Shown: piece by piece, positions 55,173 to 64,000 of the stretch
Layout: every line of letters begins with the position of its first letter
Position numbering within the stretch: the stretch's first letter is position 1
NCBI GenBank assembly: GCA_033809355.1
Contig: JAPXLV010000001.1
Coordinates: 58,295-122,294, forward strand
Source: Phycisphaerae bacterium
GTDB lineage: Bacteria > Planctomycetota > Phycisphaerae > Sedimentisphaerales > Anaerohalosphaeraceae
Length of the DNA: 64,000 nt
Direction: 5' to 3'
Program-made: the position numbers and the translations under genes
The notes under the pieces: model-generated
Told to the model about the DNA's origin: nothing
The model's database searches: none
What the model saw: the letters and a program-made list of their open reading frames with translations, nothing else

Positions 55173-55649
55173 TTATTTAATCAGACGGATACTGACCGGG
55201 TATCGGAAAGCGCGACCCTGACCAGCAGCCACACAACCCATAATGCAGAATACAAGCTCCGCAATCATTATCAGCGGCAAAAGAAAAATCCCAATGAACA
55301 CAAAAACCAACACACAGGCTATCGCATACCCTATAACAACGGTGATTTGGAAATTCAGCGCTTCTTTGCCCTGGTCGTTGACAAAGGCACTCTGGTCCTT
55401 TTTGATCAGCCAGATAATCAGCGGCCCCAGGAAACTGGAAAAAAAGCCCAGCAGATGGCACAACAGCCCCAGATTCTTGTCATCTTGGCTGACCGTGCCG
55501 CTCGGCGGCGGAGGCGGAGAAGTTAATGGACTTTCCGGAGGGGTTTGGGTATTTTGCGACGAAGATGGACTCTCTTGAGGCGACCTTTGCGGTTCCTGTG
55601 ACGGCGGGATGTTCTCATCTGGGTTGTTGCTCGGTGCGTTCTGATCCAT
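55173..55649 (-). CDS. DUF4870 domain-containing membrane protein with P/S/Q-rich N-terminus
   Basis: Start at the ATG at 55649, preceded by GGAGG 9 nt upstream. Core WLIKKDQSAFVNDQGKEALNFQIT is typical of DUF4870. Confidence 0.75.
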   Translation of the reverse strand: MDQNAPSNNPDENIPPSQEPQRSPQESPSSSQNTQTPPESPLTSPPPPPSGTVSQDDKNLGLLCHLLGFFSSFLGPLIIWLIKKDQSAFVNDQGKEALNFQITVVIGYAIACVLVFVFIGIFLLPLIMIAELVFCIMGCVAAGQGRAFRYPVSIRLIK

Positions 55650-55788
55650 AGCGTAATCCTCCCTAAACAAAGGTTTCCGATAATTCAACATTGTACATCC
55701 GTTTGCCCCATTAAAAGTCAGACATTCGCATCTGTCAAGTCAATTGTTGCGCCGCGGCTTCATTGATGGCTGCGGATGCGGATTTTCT

Positions 55789-57404: not shown

Positions 57405-58742
57405 ATGGACAGAGACGACTTAAAACGATATTCGGCGGTGGAGGTGGTGCTGCTGGCGATTTTTGCGCTGGGGTTGGGGTTGTCGCTGATCGTGGTGCGT
57501 GTGCGCGGGCATGTGGAACCGGGCGAGCCGGTGGCATTGCCGGGCTCCGGCCTGGCGGCAGCGATTCCCAAGGGCGACAAATGGCAGTCTGCCGGAGGGT
57601 GGCACTATGAAACCGACAATGCCTATGTCCTGTTGGGACAGATGCATGTGGCTGGTCGGCCGGAGATGCGGGTGCGATGGCGGTATGCCCTCTGCGAAGA
57701 TGCGGGCGACCCGGAGCAGGTCCTTCAGACGCTGGCCGATACTGCCGGGGGCAAACTGGTTCTGTTGGGCATGGCCGAAGGGCCGGTGCCGCTGGTGTTT
57801 GGACGCATTTATGTGCCTGCGCAGGGGGGCCAGGATTTCTTGATGGGGGTCGCGTCGCTGGATTTTGGAAGACGACTGGAGTTGCAGATCTCTTATCGCA
57901 GCGACGGCTGGTTTGCCGAAAACGTCTTTCGTACCCTCGCGGCCAATATCCGCTATGAACGCCCCGCGGCGTTACAGGCCGGTGCTGAACGGGTGCATAC
58001 CTTTTTTGAGGATATTGAAACGACCGCCGGCGGGCTGTTTATTCCCAATGCAGCGCGTCAGTTGCACTATCTGGTCAAAGATGTCGCCGACAGGCCGCTG
58101 GGTTTTGTCGAACAGCGGTTTTTTGCCCATAACGACCCCTTGGGGAAGGGGTACTACCGCATCACAATGCGGCAGCTGGAACAGGGTGGGCTTTATAGCG
58201 AGTCGGATCTGTGGCTGGACGCCGAAGAGGATGCCTTTACGTGGACAACCCGGTCGAGGCTGTCGCGTTCACGTCAGCCTCGAGTGGTCGAGGTGCGAGC
58301 CGATGCCCAACGGCGAATCGTACTGACGAGCAAGACCGAACCAGAAGGGTCATTTCGACGAACCGAAATGATGCTGCCTGAGCCGCTTTTGCCGGTTTTT
58401 GCGGCGGGTTTGGCCGATGCCGGCGACCAGATATTCGTTGTGGATGTGCTGACCGGCAGCGGGAATGTCGTTCCGACGCAATTGGCAGTAATTGATGCCA
58501 ACCAAAGCCATGTCCGCGCGTCCGACCCCGTTTGGGTGGTGCGGGCCGACTACCTGCACACCCAAGGGGCGTTTGATGAGTTGGTGTTTGACCGGCAGGG
58601 CCAGTGTCTGGGGCGCTTTGAACAGCAGCCCCAGCGACCGGTTCGACTGTGGGAACAAGCCGACACTGAGGCCTTGCAACGGATTTTTGGGGAACGTTAC
58701 GAGGGGTTCTCGCAGGGCGATTTTCAGGAAGCCAGATCTTAA
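57405..58742 (+). CDS. Hypothetical membrane-anchored protein
   Basis: 445-aa ORF with one N-terminal TM helix (VVLLAIFALGLGLSLIVV) and GC3-rich codons. No family recognised. Confidence 0.55.
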   Translation: MDRDDLKRYSAVEVVLLAIFALGLGLSLIVVRVRGHVEPGEPVALPGSGLAAAIPKGDKWQSAGGWHYETDNAYVLLGQMHVAGRPEMRVRWRYALCEDAGDPEQVLQTLADTAGGKLVLLGMAEGPVPLVFGRIYVPAQGGQDFLMGVASLDFGRRLELQISYRSDGWFAENVFRTLAANIRYERPAALQAGAERVHTFFEDIETTAGGLFIPNAARQLHYLVKDVADRPLGFVEQRFFAHNDPLGKGYYRITMRQLEQGGLYSESDLWLDAEEDAFTWTTRSRLSRSRQPRVVEVRADAQRRIVLTSKTEPEGSFRRTEMMLPEPLLPVFAAGLADAGDQIFVVDVLTGSGNVVPTQLAVIDANQSHVRASDPVWVVRADYLHTQGAFDELVFDRQGQCLGRFEQQPQRPVRLWEQADTEALQRIFGERYEGFSQGDFQEARS

Positions 58743-58773: not shown

Positions 58774-59772
58774 ATGACGCACCAGGAATATGACTGCATT
58801 ATTGTCGGGGCCGGCCCGGCCGGGCTGGGCGCCGGATTGTATGCCGCCCGCGATCGGGCCAAAACCATTTTGCTGGAGAAATTTTACCCCGGCGGGCAGA
58901 TCAATACGACCGACCGCATTGAAAATTATCCCGGCTATGCCCAGATCAGCGGGCCGGATTTGGTGATGAAAATGCTGGAGCAGGTGCAAACCTTCGGTGG
59001 CGAGGTCAAAACCAGCACCGAGGTGGCCGGCTTGTCTCGTCGGCAGGACGGGCGCATCGAGGTCCGTACTGACGAGGATGTCTATCTGGGCCGGGTGGTG
59101 ATTTTGTCGCCGGGCAGTTCCTATCGCCATTTAGGTGTTCCAGGAGAAGAGGAATTCCGTCAGGTAGGAGCGGGTGTCAGTTACTGCGGCACCTGTGATG
59201 CGCCGTTTTTTAAGGACAAAGTGGTCGTCTCGGTTGGCGGCGGGAACACGGCCGTGGAAGATACCCTGCACTTGGCCAAATACGCCAAAAAGGTTATTAT
59301 GGTGCATCGACGTCAACAATTCCGAGCCACCCCGGTGCTGGTTGAAGAATTGATGCAAAAAGTCAACGCCCCTGATTCTAACATTGAATTGAAGCTGGAC
59401 GCGACGGTGACGGCTATCGAGGGCAAAGATCGGGTCGAGCGGGTCATCATTCAGAACGTCAAAACCGGTCAAACCGAGACTGTCCCCTGCGATGGGGTGT
59501 TTATTTTTGTAGGGATGGTTCCCAATACCGGTTTTTTGGCTGGTTTCGTGGAATTGACCGAAGCCGGTTTCATCAAGTGCGATACCGCCTACCTGCGCAC
59601 CAGCGTGCCGGGGGTGTTCGCGGCTGGCGATTGTCGCATCGGTGCGGCTATGCAGCTGATTACGGCGGTGGCCGATGGGGTCAATGCGGCAATGTGGATG
59701 AAGCACTATCTGCGGGACCCGCAGTGGTGGAACGCTCCGCTGTCGGACAGTCTCTCACCGGGCCAGTGGTAG
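58774..59772 (+). CDS. trxB: Thioredoxin-disulfide reductase
   Basis: Start at the ATG at 58774 with an AAGGAAG SD. FAD motif IIVGAGPAGLGAG and redox CxxC in CGTCDAPFF. Confidence 0.9.
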   Translation: MTHQEYDCIIVGAGPAGLGAGLYAARDRAKTILLEKFYPGGQINTTDRIENYPGYAQISGPDLVMKMLEQVQTFGGEVKTSTEVAGLSRRQDGRIEVRTDEDVYLGRVVILSPGSSYRHLGVPGEEEFRQVGAGVSYCGTCDAPFFKDKVVVSVGGGNTAVEDTLHLAKYAKKVIMVHRRQQFRATPVLVEELMQKVNAPDSNIELKLDATVTAIEGKDRVERVIIQNVKTGQTETVPCDGVFIFVGMVPNTGFLAGFVELTEAGFIKCDTAYLRTSVPGVFAAGDCRIGAAMQLITAVADGVNAAMWMKHYLRDPQWWNAPLSDSLSPGQW

Positions 59773-59854
59773 GCTGCGTCGGAACACAAATCTCAAAATA
59801 GTGAAAAATTTGCAAATTTTTGTGAACTTTTGCGGGAATTTGCCGAAAAATATG

Positions 59855-59887
59855 TTGACTACTTGGTCATAAGTGACTAAATAGTCA
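59855..59887 (+). promoter_or_regulatory. Candidate promoter with two overlapping palindromic operator-like sites for the TetR-family gene
   Basis: TTGACT (59855..59860), 17-nt spacer, TAAATA (59878..59883). Perfect palindrome TGACTA-AA-TAGTCA (59874..59887) covers the -10 box. The related TGACTA-CT-TGGTCA (59856..59869) covers the -35 box. The ATG at 59891 is 7 nt after the -10 box. Confidence 0.45.
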
Positions 59888-59890
59888 TTT

Positions 59891-60568
59891 ATGGATTTGC
59901 CTGTTCAAAAGCGAATTGAAAGTCTTGATACGCTGGTGCAAACGCCGGAACCTGCCCCCAGCCGTACTGAAAAGCGGGCCGCAAAGACCCGCAACAAGTT
60001 GCTTAAGGCCGCCTTGGACATCTTCAGTGAGTGGGGTGTCGATGCTGCGACGATCGATATGATTACCGAGCGGGCGGATTTGGGAAAAGGAACATTTTAC
60101 CGACATTTTACCGATAAATACGACATTGCCGGGGTGCTGGTTGAACAGGCAATTGACCATTTGCTTGGTTTGCTGCGCCAAGGTGAGCCGCAGCCAAGTC
60201 GGTCGCTGGAGGACGTACTGGAGCATTTTTTAAATGCCCATTACGCCTTTTTTCGCCACCATCAGGATGAATTTATTCTGTTGTTTCAGGGGCGTTTGCT
60301 GTTGAAACTGGAGCGTCAGGCAACCGACCGGCTCGAGGCACCGTTTGCCCGGTATCTGGAAGAGATAGAAATACAGTTGGTGCCCTATTTGGGGCAGAAA
60401 AAGGTCGATTTGGTGCGGATTCGGCGATTGGCATGTGCCGTGGCGGGTTTTGTGTTTGGGTTCTTTTCCTTCGCGATGATTGGGATGGAGCCGCAGGATA
60501 TCGCCGACAGTATAAAGCCGTTGCGGCAAAGTTTTGTCAAGAGTCTGACACTGTTTTTGACCCAATGA
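59891..60568 (+). CDS. TetR/AcrR family transcriptional regulator
   Basis: N-terminal HTH ALDIFSEWGVDAATIDMITERADLGKGTFYRHF. Confidence 0.85.
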   Translation: MDLPVQKRIESLDTLVQTPEPAPSRTEKRAAKTRNKLLKAALDIFSEWGVDAATIDMITERADLGKGTFYRHFTDKYDIAGVLVEQAIDHLLGLLRQGEPQPSRSLEDVLEHFLNAHYAFFRHHQDEFILLFQGRLLLKLERQATDRLEAPFARYLEEIEIQLVPYLGQKKVDLVRIRRLACAVAGFVFGFFSFAMIGMEPQDIADSIKPLRQSFVKSLTLFLTQ

Positions 60569-60656
60569 GTTAGAAGATAGATAATGAAGGGCGATTGGGC
60601 GCCCCGAGAAAAAACCATAGAGAACAGCGTTTTTTACAGTGAAAGGAATGCTGACA

Positions 60657-62051
60657 ATGCAGCAATGTGAACGGGTTGAGATCGGCGTTGCCGAAGAACA
60701 GGCTTCCGAGCCTCCAAGTCCGTTGAGGGCCGCCGAAGATGCGCCCTCTGCTTTATCAACCCGCCGCGGGGACAAAACCGCCCTGCCGGAGGAGAAACAA
60801 CACCCCCTAAATGCCGCCCAATGGAGCGATTGGCGCTGGCAAATACGCAATCGCATCCGCACACTGGAGCAATTGTTGCCGTATGTTCCGTCGCTGGGTG
60901 CCTCGTCTGAACTGCCCAAGGTCATCGCCCGCTATCCGATGGCGATTACGCCGTATTACGCGACCCTGATCGAGCGGGCGGATATGTCCGATCCTGTTTT
61001 TCGGATGAGCGTGCCGAATGTGCAGGAATTGTACGACCCGCCATCCCTGAGCGATGACCCGCTGGAAGAGCACGAAGATATGCCCGTGCCGGGGCTGGTG
61101 CATCGCTATCGCGATCGAGCGCTGCTGATTGTAACGACGATGTGTTCGATGTATTGTCGCCACTGCACGCGTAAACGCATTGCCGGCACACGTGAAAGCT
61201 CGATTTCGCCGCATCGGCTTCGCCAGGTGGTTGAGTATCTGACCGCTCATCCGGAAATTTCCGATGTGATTATTTCCGGCGGCGATCCGCTGACGATGTC
61301 CGATGCCCATCTGGAAACTGTCCTTAGTGCCGTTCGGTCGGTGCCGTCGGTGCAGATCATTCGCATCGGGACGCGGGTGCCTGTGGTGCTGCCGATGCGG
61401 ATCACCGCCGACCTGACGGCCATGCTGAAAAAATATCACCCGTTGTGGATCAATACGCATTTTAATCACCCCAACGAGTTAAGCACTCAAGCCAAGGCCG
61501 CCTGTGCGGCGCTAGCGGATGCCGGCATTCCGCTGGGCAACCAGACGGTATTGTTGCGCGGCGTCAACGACAGCCCGCAGATCATCGAACGGCTGTGTCG
61601 CGGCTTGATTCAAATGCGTGTGCGGCCGTATTATTTGTACCAATGCGATCTGGTTCGCGGCGTGGAGCATTTTCGCACGTCCATTCGCACAGGCCTTGAG
61701 ATTATGGAATATCTCCGCGGGCGGGTCAGCGGTATTGCGATTCCTCTGTTTGTGGTGGATGCTCCCCACGGCGGGGGCAAGATTCCGGTACTGCCCACCT
61801 ATGTGGTTTCGTCCAGTTGTACGCATACTGTACTGCGAAATTATGAGGGCTTGCTGGTCAATTATCCCGAACCGGGCGCCGAAGCCGATCCATCTATGAC
61901 GGCACCGGCCAATGAGCCGGGGGTGTGGGAACTGGCCGTCGGTCAGGCCTCGGTGATTTTGCCGGCGCGGAATACCCGAATCAAACGGCGCGAAAAAATC
62001 GCTCCGCAAAACCGTACCAAAGGTGATGCGCAGTCGCTGCTGGACAGGTAA
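60657..62051 (+). CDS. kamA: Lysine 2,3-aminomutase (KamA/AblA family radical SAM enzyme)
   Basis: CSMYCRHCTRKR (CxxxCxxC) matches clostridial KamA almost exactly. Also DWRWQIRNRI and a full-length core of about 410 aa. The start is uncertain (GTG 60639, ATG 60648 or 60657; AAGGA precedes 60657). There is a low-complexity N-terminal extension. Confidence 0.85.
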   Translation: MQQCERVEIGVAEEQASEPPSPLRAAEDAPSALSTRRGDKTALPEEKQHPLNAAQWSDWRWQIRNRIRTLEQLLPYVPSLGASSELPKVIARYPMAITPYYATLIERADMSDPVFRMSVPNVQELYDPPSLSDDPLEEHEDMPVPGLVHRYRDRALLIVTTMCSMYCRHCTRKRIAGTRESSISPHRLRQVVEYLTAHPEISDVIISGGDPLTMSDAHLETVLSAVRSVPSVQIIRIGTRVPVVLPMRITADLTAMLKKYHPLWINTHFNHPNELSTQAKAACAALADAGIPLGNQTVLLRGVNDSPQIIERLCRGLIQMRVRPYYLYQCDLVRGVEHFRTSIRTGLEIMEYLRGRVSGIAIPLFVVDAPHGGGKIPVLPTYVVSSSCTHTVLRNYEGLLVNYPEPGAEADPSMTAPANEPGVWELAVGQASVILPARNTRIKRREKIAPQNRTKGDAQSLLDR

Positions 62052-62091
62052 CTGCTGACCTCTGCGGGCCATAGCGCCATACGAGGGCATT

Positions 62092-63891
62092 ATGATTCGA
62101 ATTGTTCGCATCTATCACCATTTGCTGCCGATTGAGCAGGATCGCATTGCGCAGGTGCAGGAGATTTTTCGTCAGAATTTTTCGGCGGTGGCCGACTATG
62201 CCGACAAGATTCCAAGCCTGTTGGACAATCCGATTCAGTACGGCTATACAACGGGGTTGCTGGTCTCGGAAACATCGTTGGGGCATGTGACCGGATTTTC
62301 TTTGGTTCTGTATTTTCCGACGATCCGAAGCGCATTGCTGGATTTTATGGCGGTCCGACGGGGCATCCGCGGCGGCGGCACGGGCAGCGCCTTGTACGAG
62401 GCGACCCGGGAATATTCCAAGCAGGCCGGGGCACTGGGGTTATATCTGGAGGCGCTGCCGGACGACCCGACAGTTGTAACCGACCCGGCGGAGTTAAAAG
62501 AAAACCAGCGGCGGCTGCGCTTTTATGAAAATTACGACGTTCGTCCGATTATCGGCACCGAATACGAAACACCCATTGACGACTCGCCGGCGCCGTACCT
62601 GCTGTATGACGGGCTGGATCGCGATGAGCCGTTGAGTCGGTCTCAGTGTCGCGCGGCCATCCGGACGATTCTGACCAAAAAGTACAGCCATCTGGTCCGG
62701 CCCGATTATATTGAGCGTGTGGTCGAGTCGGTAGTGGATGACCCGGTGCGGCTGCGACCGCCGAAATATGTCAAAGCCGAAACGCCCCCCGTTTACAGCC
62801 TGGCCGACCGACGACTGGAAAAGCCGTTTGTGATGGTCAGCTGCGAGGCGCACCAGGTGCATCACGTCCACGAGCGGGGCTATGTCGAACGGCCGGCACG
62901 GGTCGGCGTGATCCGCCAGTCGCTGGAGGCGATGGGCCTGTTTGAAGTGAGCGGCGTTAAACACTTCGGCCAGGAATATATCACCGCGGTCCACGATGCC
63001 GACTTTGTCAATTATCTCAAAGCGGTCTGTCTGAAGCTGCACGGCAAACGGCCGGTCTATCCGTATGTGTTTCCCATTCGCCGTCCGGAACGTCGTCCCA
63101 AAGACCTGGCGGTACGAGCGGGCTATTACTGCATTGACACCTTTACGCCTCTGGACCGCAATGCGTATGACGCGGCCAAGGCGGCGGTGGATGTGGCATT
63201 GACCGCAGCCGAGCAGGTGCTGCACGGGTGTCAGTTGGCCTATGCGTTGTGCCGACCGCCGGGCCATCACGCCGAGCGGCGAGTCTTTGGCGGGTTTTGC
63301 TATTTCAACAACGCCGCGATCGCCGCCCAGTTCCTGAGCAAACACGGCAGCGTGGCAATGCTGGATATCGACTTTCATCACGGCAACGGCGCGCAGGATA
63401 TTTTTTACACCCGCCGCGATGTGCTGACGGTCTCAATCCACGGCCACCCGAACTTTGCCTATCCGTATTTTTCGGGGTTTGCCGATGAAACGGGCCAGGG
63501 CGACGGCAAGGGGTTCAATCATAACTATCCGCTGGCGGAAAACGCCGGAGCTACCGAGTACGTCACGGCTCTGGACAAGGCGCTGGGCAATGTGCGGAAA
63601 TTTTCGCCGATGTTTTTGGTGGTGTGTGTGGGCTTTGACATTATGAAAGGCGACCCGACCGGTTCGTTTGGTCTGAACGGCCGGATGGTAAAACAGATCG
63701 GTCAGGCCATCGGGGCGTTGAATCTGCCGACATTGGTCGTGCAGGAAGGCGGCTACAGCCTGCGGAATCTGCGGATGGGTGCAACGGCGCTGTTTCAGGG
63801 TTTTGCAGAGCCCTTAAAGCCCTCGGCGGAAAACGCTTCGGGCCTTCCGAGAGGCGAAAAAAAACGCCCTCCCAACGGCAGGCAAACGTAA
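62092..63891 (+). CDS. Fusion protein: N-terminal GNAT-type acetyltransferase domain plus C-terminal histone deacetylase/acetylpolyamine amidohydrolase-family domain
   Basis: Residues about 1-170 carry GNAT motif A (VRRGIRGGGTGSALYEATREY) and RRLRFYENYDVRPI. Residues about 260-590 carry HDAC-fold signatures RPPGHHAE, FCYFNNAAIA and LDIDFHHGNG. Confidence 0.75.
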   Translation: MIRIVRIYHHLLPIEQDRIAQVQEIFRQNFSAVADYADKIPSLLDNPIQYGYTTGLLVSETSLGHVTGFSLVLYFPTIRSALLDFMAVRRGIRGGGTGSALYEATREYSKQAGALGLYLEALPDDPTVVTDPAELKENQRRLRFYENYDVRPIIGTEYETPIDDSPAPYLLYDGLDRDEPLSRSQCRAAIRTILTKKYSHLVRPDYIERVVESVVDDPVRLRPPKYVKAETPPVYSLADRRLEKPFVMVSCEAHQVHHVHERGYVERPARVGVIRQSLEAMGLFEVSGVKHFGQEYITAVHDADFVNYLKAVCLKLHGKRPVYPYVFPIRRPERRPKDLAVRAGYYCIDTFTPLDRNAYDAAKAAVDVALTAAEQVLHGCQLAYALCRPPGHHAERRVFGGFCYFNNAAIAAQFLSKHGSVAMLDIDFHHGNGAQDIFYTRRDVLTVSIHGHPNFAYPYFSGFADETGQGDGKGFNHNYPLAENAGATEYVTALDKALGNVRKFSPMFLVVCVGFDIMKGDPTGSFGLNGRMVKQIGQAIGALNLPTLVVQEGGYSLRNLRMGATALFQGFAEPLKPSAENASGLPRGEKKRPPNGRQT

Positions 63892-63974
63892 AGCACGCGG
63901 TTGGATGTGCTGAATCATAAACTCAAACAATGAAAGAAAACAGGTTGAAACGGATTGATAAGGACAGCTTAAAC

Positions 63975-64000
63975 ATGCAACGAATCGGGTTGGTTTACGA
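63975..64000 (+). CDS. Start of a further ORF (MQRIGLVY...), cut by the window end
   Basis: ATG at 63975, same strand as the kamA cluster. Only 8 codons are visible, so no functional call is possible. Confidence 0.25.

Follow-up and report, generated by a model that had tools for sequence, protein, structure and literature searches.

The known roles of beta-lysine in free-living microbes are mainly those of precursor to one osmolyte, modification of elongation factor P (EF-P) and antibiotic building block. During pyrrolysine synthesis the product of a radical SAM lysine mutase, PylB, is joined to an amine by PylC, a Ddl-like ATP-grasp ligase. The AblA/AblB pathway to N-epsilon-acetyl-beta-lysine is found in methanogens and has been predicted in Pelobacter carbinolicus (PMC3543383), while the acetylpolyamine amidohydrolases Mycoplana ramosa ApaH, Pseudomonas PA1409 and PsApaH are placed in cluster 4 in a study that also describes the role of their L1 loop (PMC11532494). 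Here, a locus at the 3' end of a 64,000-nucleotide (nt) stretch of a Phycisphaerae genome (contig JAPXLV010000001.1, positions 58,295 to 122,294; hereafter the window) is compared with these systems. It encodes a TetR-family regulator, a KamA-type lysine 2,3-aminomutase, a fusion of a GNAT acetyltransferase domain with an HDAC-fold deacetylase domain, and the beginning of a Ddl-like ligase, termed Ddl1.

The locus forms a four-gene operon, tetR-kamA-(GNAT-deacetylase)-ddl1, that is probably repressed by its own TetR. Its sequence points to a lysine-specific aminomutase and to a ligase of the ATP-grasp type, a GNAT and a deacetylase that are all intact, encoded in one operon and co-inherited across phyla. 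The operon is read here as a reduced form of a larger module and as somewhat probably directing, through KamA, the ligase and the fusion, the synthesis of an N-acetylated beta-lysine amide or peptide. The module is widespread yet undescribed in the searchable literature. No description of it or of a GNAT-deacetylase fusion was found in that literature, which takes in few subscription journals, and earlier work is possible; a survey of bacterial deacylases makes no mention of GNAT fusions. A first-pass annotation of the window had stated that no system of this architecture was known, which stands as far as published descriptions go, but the fusion itself is not rare, occurring in at least 590 species and carrying a deacetylase/GNAT label at JGI.

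Results

Extent of the operon

All open reading frames (ORFs) of the locus were confirmed on the + strand from the ORF list of the window. The gene succession given in the first-pass annotation, a tetR gene, then kamA and, 40 nt on, a 599-amino-acid (aa) ORF with GNAT and HDAC domains (62092–63891), was borne out by the ORFs, by Pfam and by a fold model. The fusion protein is present on 55 public contigs, one of which (L001) is identical to the window, with 0 mismatches over the 9-kb overlap. On this contig the same-strand ORF that starts at 63975 and is cut by the window edge proved to be a real gene, ddl1, of 342 aa (L001 11884–12912), which would end at about 65003 in window numbering. The earlier suspicion that more components lay beyond 64000 was therefore correct, the extension giving the Ddl1 ATP-grasp ligase and then the end of the operon. 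Since a terminator-like hairpin and a convergent helicase gene lie 3' of ddl1 on L001, the operon consists of tetR, kamA, the fusion gene and ddl1 in this order on one strand, with intergenic gaps of 88, 40 and 83 nt.

The aminomutase

The kamA ORF contains CSMYCRHCTRKR and matches the Pfam families Radical_SAM and LAM_C (LAM_C E = 3e-25). Gene callers on the identical public contigs start it at ATG 60657, giving 464 aa, not at GTG 60639, and an AAAGGAA motif lies 8–9 nt upstream of this ATG. When aligned to the solved Clostridium lysine 2,3-aminomutase (2A5H, E = 3e-134), the protein keeps the CxxxCxxC motif of the radical SAM cluster (CSMYCRHC), the pyridoxal phosphate (PLP) lysine (GGGK) and both aspartates for the epsilon-ammonium group (QCD and VVDAP); in the Clostridium enzyme, Asp293 and Asp330 are the binders of the lysine epsilon-ammonium. 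Among the KamAs of the module described below, the Fe-S cysteines and the PLP lysine are present in 76 of 76 and both lysine-binding aspartates in 75 of 76.

KamA is a member of the KamA family by TIGR00238 (314.6 bits against a cut-off of 199.2). Its best-scoring model is the AblA model TIGR03820, where it reaches 498.6 bits and so falls below the equivalog cut-off of 525.4, and its scores on the glutamate, arginine and EpmB aminomutase models are far below the AblA score. The EpmB model gave 253.8 bits against a cut-off of 369.3, and LAM_C is present, so that an assignment to EpmB, which had been raised as a possible objection, was not upheld. Seven sampled KamA orthologues of the module score 451–516 bits on AblA, each under the cut-off, which suggests that the module KamAs form a group related to, yet distinct from, the AblA equivalog. 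By its conserved residues and model scores, KamA is predicted to be a genuine lysine-to-beta-lysine enzyme, and neither an EF-P modifier of the EpmB kind nor a glutamate mutase.

The GNAT-deacetylase fusion

Profile searches with the two halves of the fusion, as proposed in the first-pass annotation, had unequal outcomes. The C-terminal half was recovered by PF00850 with E = 3e-72. The N-terminal half scored 16.7 bits on PF00583 within the whole protein and 18.0 bits alone (cut-off 20.7), and 16.8 and 18.2 bits respectively on PF13508 (cut-off 27); no AblB model appears for it among the matches listed at E ≤ 1. Its identity as a GNAT rests instead on fold and homologues. Many fusion homologues of 60–74% identity carry PF00583 or PF13508. 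An AlphaFold2 model of the half (predicted local distance difference test, pLDDT, 84; predicted template modelling score 0.81) has GCN5, PCAF, PaiA and EctA as its top Foldseek matches, at probability 1.0 and a TM-score of about 0.75 on the target. When a profile of this domain was run against the PDB, the weak matches were nearly all GNATs, aligned on motif A. The acetyl-CoA pyrophosphate loop, R93-G-G-G96-T-G98, is conserved. Its G96 and G98 do not vary among 20 sequences, and neither do L101, E103, E120, Y145 and E146; a lack of acetyl-CoA-binding residues, another objection foreseen, was not found. Because the homologues carry the Pfam domain, and because the modelled fold, the acetyl-CoA loop and the PDB profile agree, the GNAT fold predicted for the N-terminal half is taken as confirmed despite the sub-threshold Pfam score. 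This GNAT belongs to a small dedicated family. A set of 1.84 billion proteins contains 446 representatives, many of which are full-length fusions or gene fragments.

The deacetylase half has its best solved relatives among the acetylpolyamine amidohydrolases 9gkz, 6phr, 3men and 3q9b (E = 1e-75 to 1e-63), with HDAC6 behind. H392/H393, D425, D427, H429, D516 and Y555 are invariant in 20 homologues, as are the RPPGHH and EGGY motifs, which mark robust deacetylases, the polyamine-deacetylase cluster included (PMC11532494). Two features depart from the free-standing enzymes. The half reads DPTG where 9gkz has DPIS, with PTG invariant in place of the PIS motif, and it has no free N-terminal L1 lid. 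Alignment to 9gkz begins at residue 39 of the 9gkz chain, and the place of the lid is occupied by the GNAT domain and a low-confidence linker, for which pLDDT is below 50 from aa 231 to aa 258, the end of the modelled piece. Judged by these residues, the deacetylase half appears intact and closest to the acetylpolyamine amidohydrolases. The substrates of this clade are small molecules with an N-acetylated terminal alkylamine, a description that N-epsilon-acetyl-beta-lysine fits.

Both halves keep their catalytic or cofactor-binding motifs, in agreement with the earlier proposal that one polypeptide would supply an acetylating and a deacetylating activity. The deacetylating domain, having the HDAC fold, is unrelated to the M20 family and is, as had been stated, not orthologous to YodQ of Bacillus subtilis.

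A conserved module across bacteria

The genomic context was surveyed from two sides. On the fusion side one genome per species was taken, and 80 loci were kept of those from at least 590 species, linkage being counted in the 36 loci flanked by 5 kb or more on each side. On the ligase side Ddl1 was scanned against metagenomes, and counts were made on 25 loci with flanks of at least 4.5 kb. Full-length relatives of the fusion occur in at least 590 species, with carriers in Planctomycetota, Desulfobacterota, Dehalococcoidia, Myxococcota, Woeseiaceae, Bacteroidales, Spirochaetes, Krumholzibacteria and cultured Singulisphaera, and relatives of Ddl1 in more than 580 metagenome stretches. Two further genes recur in these loci, one for a paralogous ligase (Ddl2) that usually adjoins Ddl1 and is 25–32% identical to the window ligase (Ddl1 orthologues, 37–74%), the other for a small GNAT of about 160 aa.

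KamA lies within 8 kb of the fusion in 43 of the 80 kept loci. In the well-flanked loci on the fusion side KamA is found in 23/36, both ligases in 24/36 and the small GNAT in 23/36, so that the co-occurrence of KamA with the fusion, put forward in the first-pass annotation as a test, does recur across many phyla. From the ligase side, KamA stands directly upstream of Ddl1 in 25/25 loci, accompanied by Ddl2 in 24/25, the small GNAT in 21/25 and the fusion in 10/25. Given these counts from both sides, the core of the module is KamA-Ddl1-Ddl2-small GNAT, to which the GNAT-deacetylase fusion is often added as an accessory.

Ten gene orders occur among the 57 loci in which KamA and the fusion are both present, and in a neighbour-joining tree KamA-linked and unlinked fusions are intermingled. 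Domains of the module are also joined covalently. Ddl2 and the small GNAT form one polypeptide in seven loci (L005:6675–8351, L112:8978–10516, L086, L088, L109, L111 and L134), and the GNAT-deacetylase is joined to the small GNAT in four (L132:7071–9323, L082, L115 and L136), giving three-domain proteins of about 730–855 aa composed of GNAT, deacetylase and second small GNAT. Several apparent fusions were rejected. A triple Ddl1-Ddl2-GNAT protein in L086 shows a single Ddl domain in Pfam, its long ORF being an upstream extension artefact; a small-GNAT-then-fusion protein in L079 was left uncounted, with two thirds of the GNAT present and a frameshift possible; and over-long 'Ddl' or 'fusion' ORFs in the GC-rich loci L043, L059 and L082 are artefacts of a simple ORF caller.

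The distribution bears on whether the fusion might be a general enzyme of polyamine acetylation and deacetylation (putrescine, cadaverine, spermidine), sharing no pathway with the beta-lysine genes. Its best solved relatives are acetylpolyamine amidohydrolases, PaiA, a polyamine acetyltransferase, is among the structural neighbours of the GNAT half, and the fusion stands alone in 13/36 well-flanked loci. Such a role is nonetheless judged improbable, given that the fusion is linked to the KamA-ligase module in many phyla and in ten gene orders, that in four loci it is covalently joined to the module's own small GNAT, and that polyamine biosynthesis genes do not recur nearby.

Lysine catabolism through acetyl-beta-lysine, as in the Bacillus subtilis yodP-kamA cluster, or lysine fermentation would likewise bring KamA together with acetyl-handling steps, and catabolic operons typically have local repressors. 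The families expected there, beta-lysine 5,6-aminomutase, aminotransferase, CoA-transferase and thiolase, are not conserved in 160 loci, and ATP-consuming ligases point to biosynthesis, which leaves a catabolic role scarcely credible. Near the module loci no transporter, carrier protein, peptidase or precursor peptide is conserved either, and the remaining recurrent neighbour clusters are antisense ORFs or the clade-specific genes for TetR, for a MarR-like winged helix-turn-helix (wHTH) protein and, in some Dehalococcoidia, for MarC.

Two local arrangements were observed at individual loci. A MarC-family membrane protein gene lies immediately upstream of the fusion in the Dehalococcoidia loci L025, L027 and L042, and on the longer contigs L027 and L042 it is seen to stand between the ligase genes and the fusion. 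In Enhygromyxa salina SWB007 (L070) the fusion has a single divergent Ddl-like gene nearby, on the opposite strand, as well as a small-GNAT-like match, with no KamA within 8 kb; this locus may be a variant module built around a different amino acid.

The Ddl-like ligases

Ddl1 is an ATP-grasp enzyme of the D-Ala-D-Ala ligase family (Dala_Dala_lig_C, PF07478, E = 3e-28), labelled D-alanine--D-alanine ligase at NCBI and JGI (NLK41326.1). Residues K148, E188, R271, D273, E286 and N288 are invariant, their catalytic assignment coming from alignment with Ddl. The solved relatives are all Ddl or Van ligases, and PylC is not among them at E ≤ 1e-5.

These relatives and the public annotation favour the view that the downstream gene encodes a housekeeping peptidoglycan ligase and that the locus is merely KamA plus the fusion. 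Ddl1 nevertheless falls under all curated Ddl cut-offs (156.6 bits on the best model against 243), and its N-terminal 60 residues, the counterpart of the region with which Ddl binds the first D-Ala, fail to align with Ddl and have an invariant motif of their own. With orthologues following KamA in every well-flanked ligase-side locus and a second paralogue usually adjoining, a housekeeping role appears extremely unlikely. The scores and the strict KamA linkage suggest that the D-alanine--D-alanine ligase label is a mis-annotation, probably spread to hundreds of genomes.

Ddl2 likewise stays below the cut-off of the best Ddl models (96.4 bits) and matches the tubulin-tyrosine ligase family weakly and locally. 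For the small GNAT the best-scoring model is RimI, and the AblB model is absent among its matches listed at E ≤ 0.1. Both the RimI score and the tubulin-tyrosine ligase match would suit a protein modification system, in which the ligases put beta-lysine on a protein side chain or terminus, as in EF-P beta-lysylation or RimK tailing, and the GNAT and deacetylase act on protein lysines; beta-lysine does serve EF-P modification in other bacteria. Set against this, KamA has LAM_C and reaches 254 of the 369 bits needed on EpmB, the ligases are Ddl-type small-molecule enzymes and not EpmA-like, the deacetylase falls in the polyamine clade and not in protein-lysine clades, and no target-protein gene is conserved in the neighbourhood. 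Protein modification is accordingly held to be very improbable.

The reduced form in the window

The order TetR-KamA-fusion-Ddl1 is unique to the window among the 57 linked loci. Ddl2 and the small GNAT were not found in the 64-kb window or in the 10 kb downstream, where tblastn gave chance-level matches (E ≥ 0.097). Related loci at 63–80% identity (L004–L006) read TetR-KamA-fusion-Ddl1-Ddl2-GNAT, and two at 72% identity (L084, L085) read TetR-KamA-Ddl1-Ddl2-GNAT without the fusion. The window operon is a trimmed form of the module, and the GNAT of the fusion is its sole acetyltransferase.

Control sites

The TetR protein has an N-terminal helix-turn-helix domain (PF00440, 45 bits against a cut-off of 24). 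Directly before its gene stand two palindromes, TGACTACTTGGTCA and TGACTAAATAGTCA, which share bases with a TTGACT -35-like hexamer and stop 4 nt short of the tetR ATG. The pattern TGAC-N6-GTCA has two matches in the whole window, and both are these palindromes. Twin palindromes also precede tetR in L006 (5836–5868) and L084 (5680–5716), and four copies do so in L005 (1813–1880), so that the operator-like sites are kept in four lineages across TetR orthologues of 46–76% identity. The layout fits an autoregulated TetR promoter reading into the operon, with the palindromes as putative TetR operators. The last palindrome being only a few nt from the tetR ATG, a very short or absent leader is suggested.

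The local repressor of the first-pass annotation is supported by these conserved sites in the window's own lineage and does not extend to the module at large, a same-strand tetR 5' of kamA being confined to the planctomycete clade that includes the window (L004–L006, L084, L085, L090, L092 and L111). In some Dehalococcoidia a divergent gene for a small MarR-like wHTH protein is found upstream of kamA in place of TetR. The promoter-like match between the end of tetR and kamA (L001 8466–8494) is a consensus match only, and no operator palindrome adjoins it. Control by a riboswitch or other RNA was rejected, an Rfam search of 59500–64000 giving no RNA match at E ≤ 1.

Features and neighbouring genes

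The features of the locus are collected in Table 1. Elsewhere in the window, a 445-aa ORF at 57405–58742, flanked by guaB (IMP dehydrogenase) and a thioredoxin-reductase-like gene, is without a Pfam match on record and is kept on all three identical contigs. The - strand encodes, at 55173–55691, a small membrane protein of the MamF/MmsF family whose long N-terminal tail is rich in Pro, Ser and Gln.

Table 1. Coordinates of the operon's features in window numbering
Feature	Position	Strand	Basis
Operator-like palindromes TGACTACTTGGTCA and TGACTAAATAGTCA	59856..59887		Inverted repeats
TetR/AcrR-family regulator, 225 aa	59891..60568	+	PF00440, E = 9e-12
Sigma-70-like promoter match, TTGACC, 17 nt, GATAAT (10/12)	60557..60585	+	Consensus scan
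KamA/LAM-type lysine 2,3-aminomutase, 464 aa	60657..62051	+	Radical_SAM and LAM_C, 2A5H match
GNAT-fold N-acetyltransferase domain of the fusion, aa 1–230 (predicted)	62092..62781	+	AlphaFold2, Foldseek
Low-confidence linker of the fusion, aa 231–264	62782..62883	+	pLDDT, alignment to 9gkz
Zn-dependent deacetylase domain, acetylpolyamine amidohydrolase type, aa 265–569 (predicted)	62884..63798	+	PF00850, E = 3e-72
Ddl1 (Ddl-like ATP-grasp ligase), first 26 nt	63975..64000	+	Full gene on L001 11884–12912

Discussion

A route for the window operon can be proposed from these assignments. The first step, conversion of L-lysine to beta-lysine by KamA, is well supported by sequence. Ddl1 would then spend ATP to form an amide on beta-lysine, at the carboxylate or at one of the two amines. 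The fusion GNAT would N-acetylate an amino group of beta-lysine or of the ligated product, and the fusion deacetylase would strip an N-acetyl group from a terminal alkylamine, for example the epsilon-nitrogen of the beta-lysine moiety. The expected product is a small cytoplasmic amide or peptide that contains beta-lysine and is N-acetylated. Because acetylation and deacetylation of a single nitrogen would burn acetyl-CoA, the two domains of the fusion most probably have different nitrogens as targets or serve different pathway steps, for example as protection before ligation and deprotection after it, or in synthesis as opposed to mobilisation.

The first-pass annotation had read the cluster as a module for the synthesis and turnover of plain N-epsilon-acetyl-beta-lysine, with the GNAT half acetylating the epsilon-amine, the deacetylase half hydrolysing the product and the ATP-grasp gene unrelated or peripheral. 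Much of its basis stands. KamA is of the lysine type with its top score on the AblA model, both fusion halves keep their motifs, the proposed compound is an N-acetylated terminal alkylamine of the kind that acetylpolyamine amidohydrolases take, and with Ddl2 and the small GNAT missing from the window the fusion GNAT is the only acetyltransferase in the operon. What does not fit is the ligase, for which that pathway has no role and which accompanies KamA throughout the ligase-side loci and shares its operon here. Neither GNAT of the module matches the AblB model, the sampled module KamAs all score below the AblA cut-off, and acetylation and deacetylation of the same nitrogen by one polypeptide would amount to a futile cycle. 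This simpler pathway is therefore considered unlikely, and an amide containing beta-lysine, with the fusion setting its state of acetylation, more likely than plain N-epsilon-acetyl-beta-lysine.

Several points weigh against the proposed amide or peptide. The substrates of the ligases cannot be read from sequence and the activities are predicted, and the GNAT half of the window's fusion lies under the Pfam gathering score. The fusion is not obligatory, since it stands alone in 13 of 36 well-flanked loci and 15 of 25 core modules have none nearby. With Ddl2 and the small GNAT absent, the window operon may yield a different product from the full module, or may represent a degenerating pathway. 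The module also occurs in organisms of peat, soil and freshwater such as Singulisphaera, a poor fit with a purely salt-protective role; nor does its spread over marine sediment, peat, soil and reactors point to osmoprotection in particular.

A bolder version, offered tentatively and with more doubt than belief, is that the module makes a new family of cytoplasmic acetylated beta-lysine amides or peptides in many phyla, in which the fusion brackets ligation, its GNAT half placing a transient acetyl protecting group on one beta-lysine amine and its deacetylase half taking it off once the ATP-grasp ligation is done. If protection and deprotection do take place, one polypeptide of the window operon would perform the first and the last tailoring steps around one ligase. 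If the metabolite is new, a compound common in anoxic sediments, soils and reactors would be invisible to present annotation, under which the module genes are labelled 'lysine 2,3-aminomutase', 'histone deacetylase family protein' and 'D-alanine--D-alanine ligase'. The module is self-contained, its four to five genes joining an enzyme predicted to form beta-lysine with two dedicated ATP-grasp ligases and as many as three domains that handle acetyl groups. An acetyltransferase and a deacetylase domain opposed to each other in one natural protein would be an unusual enzymological case, and the three-enzyme version in the window is the smallest form and the easiest to reconstitute.

The known systems resemble the module in part. 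AblA/AblB also sets a lysine 2,3-aminomutase of the same subfamily beside an acetyl-CoA-dependent N-acetyltransferase, with a small cytoplasmic beta-lysine derivative as the likely shared kind of product; the module differs in having no AblB-type GNAT, a KamA just under the AblA cut-off, one or two obligatory ATP-grasp ligases and a deacetylase fused to a GNAT. The B. subtilis yodP-kamA-yodQ cluster offers KamA, a beta-lysine acetyltransferase and a deacylase-like gene, but there the deacylase-like YodQ is of the M20 family, aminotransferase and CoA-transferase genes are present, an ATP-grasp ligase is lacking and the domains are unfused. The deacetylase half resembles the acetylpolyamine amidohydrolases, its top sequence matches, in fold, Zn ligands, His-His pair and the motifs RPPGHH and EGGY; unlike them, the fusion has a GNAT in place of the L1 lid, an invariant PTG for PIS and a linkage to beta-lysine genes.

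On the ligase side, the system of the bifunctional enzyme Ngg and of AsnO for N-acetylglutaminylglutamine amide combines a GNAT with an ATP-grasp peptide ligase to give an N-acetylated small peptide, and the single polypeptide of Ddl2 and small GNAT in seven related loci has the same domain content. The module ligases are, however, Ddl-type and not RimK-type, the domain order differs, no amidotransferase is present, the match to the Ngg model is not significant (E = 0.08) and the proposed substrate is beta-lysine instead of glutamine. With PylB and PylC the likeness would be one of logic only, PylB standing outside the KamA family and pyrrolysine synthesis involving no acetyl handling. As the module proteins fall outside the AblB, AblA, Ddl and Ngg families when scored against their models, the module is treated as analogous in its working to the AblAB, Ngg and PylB/PylC systems and not as a member of any.

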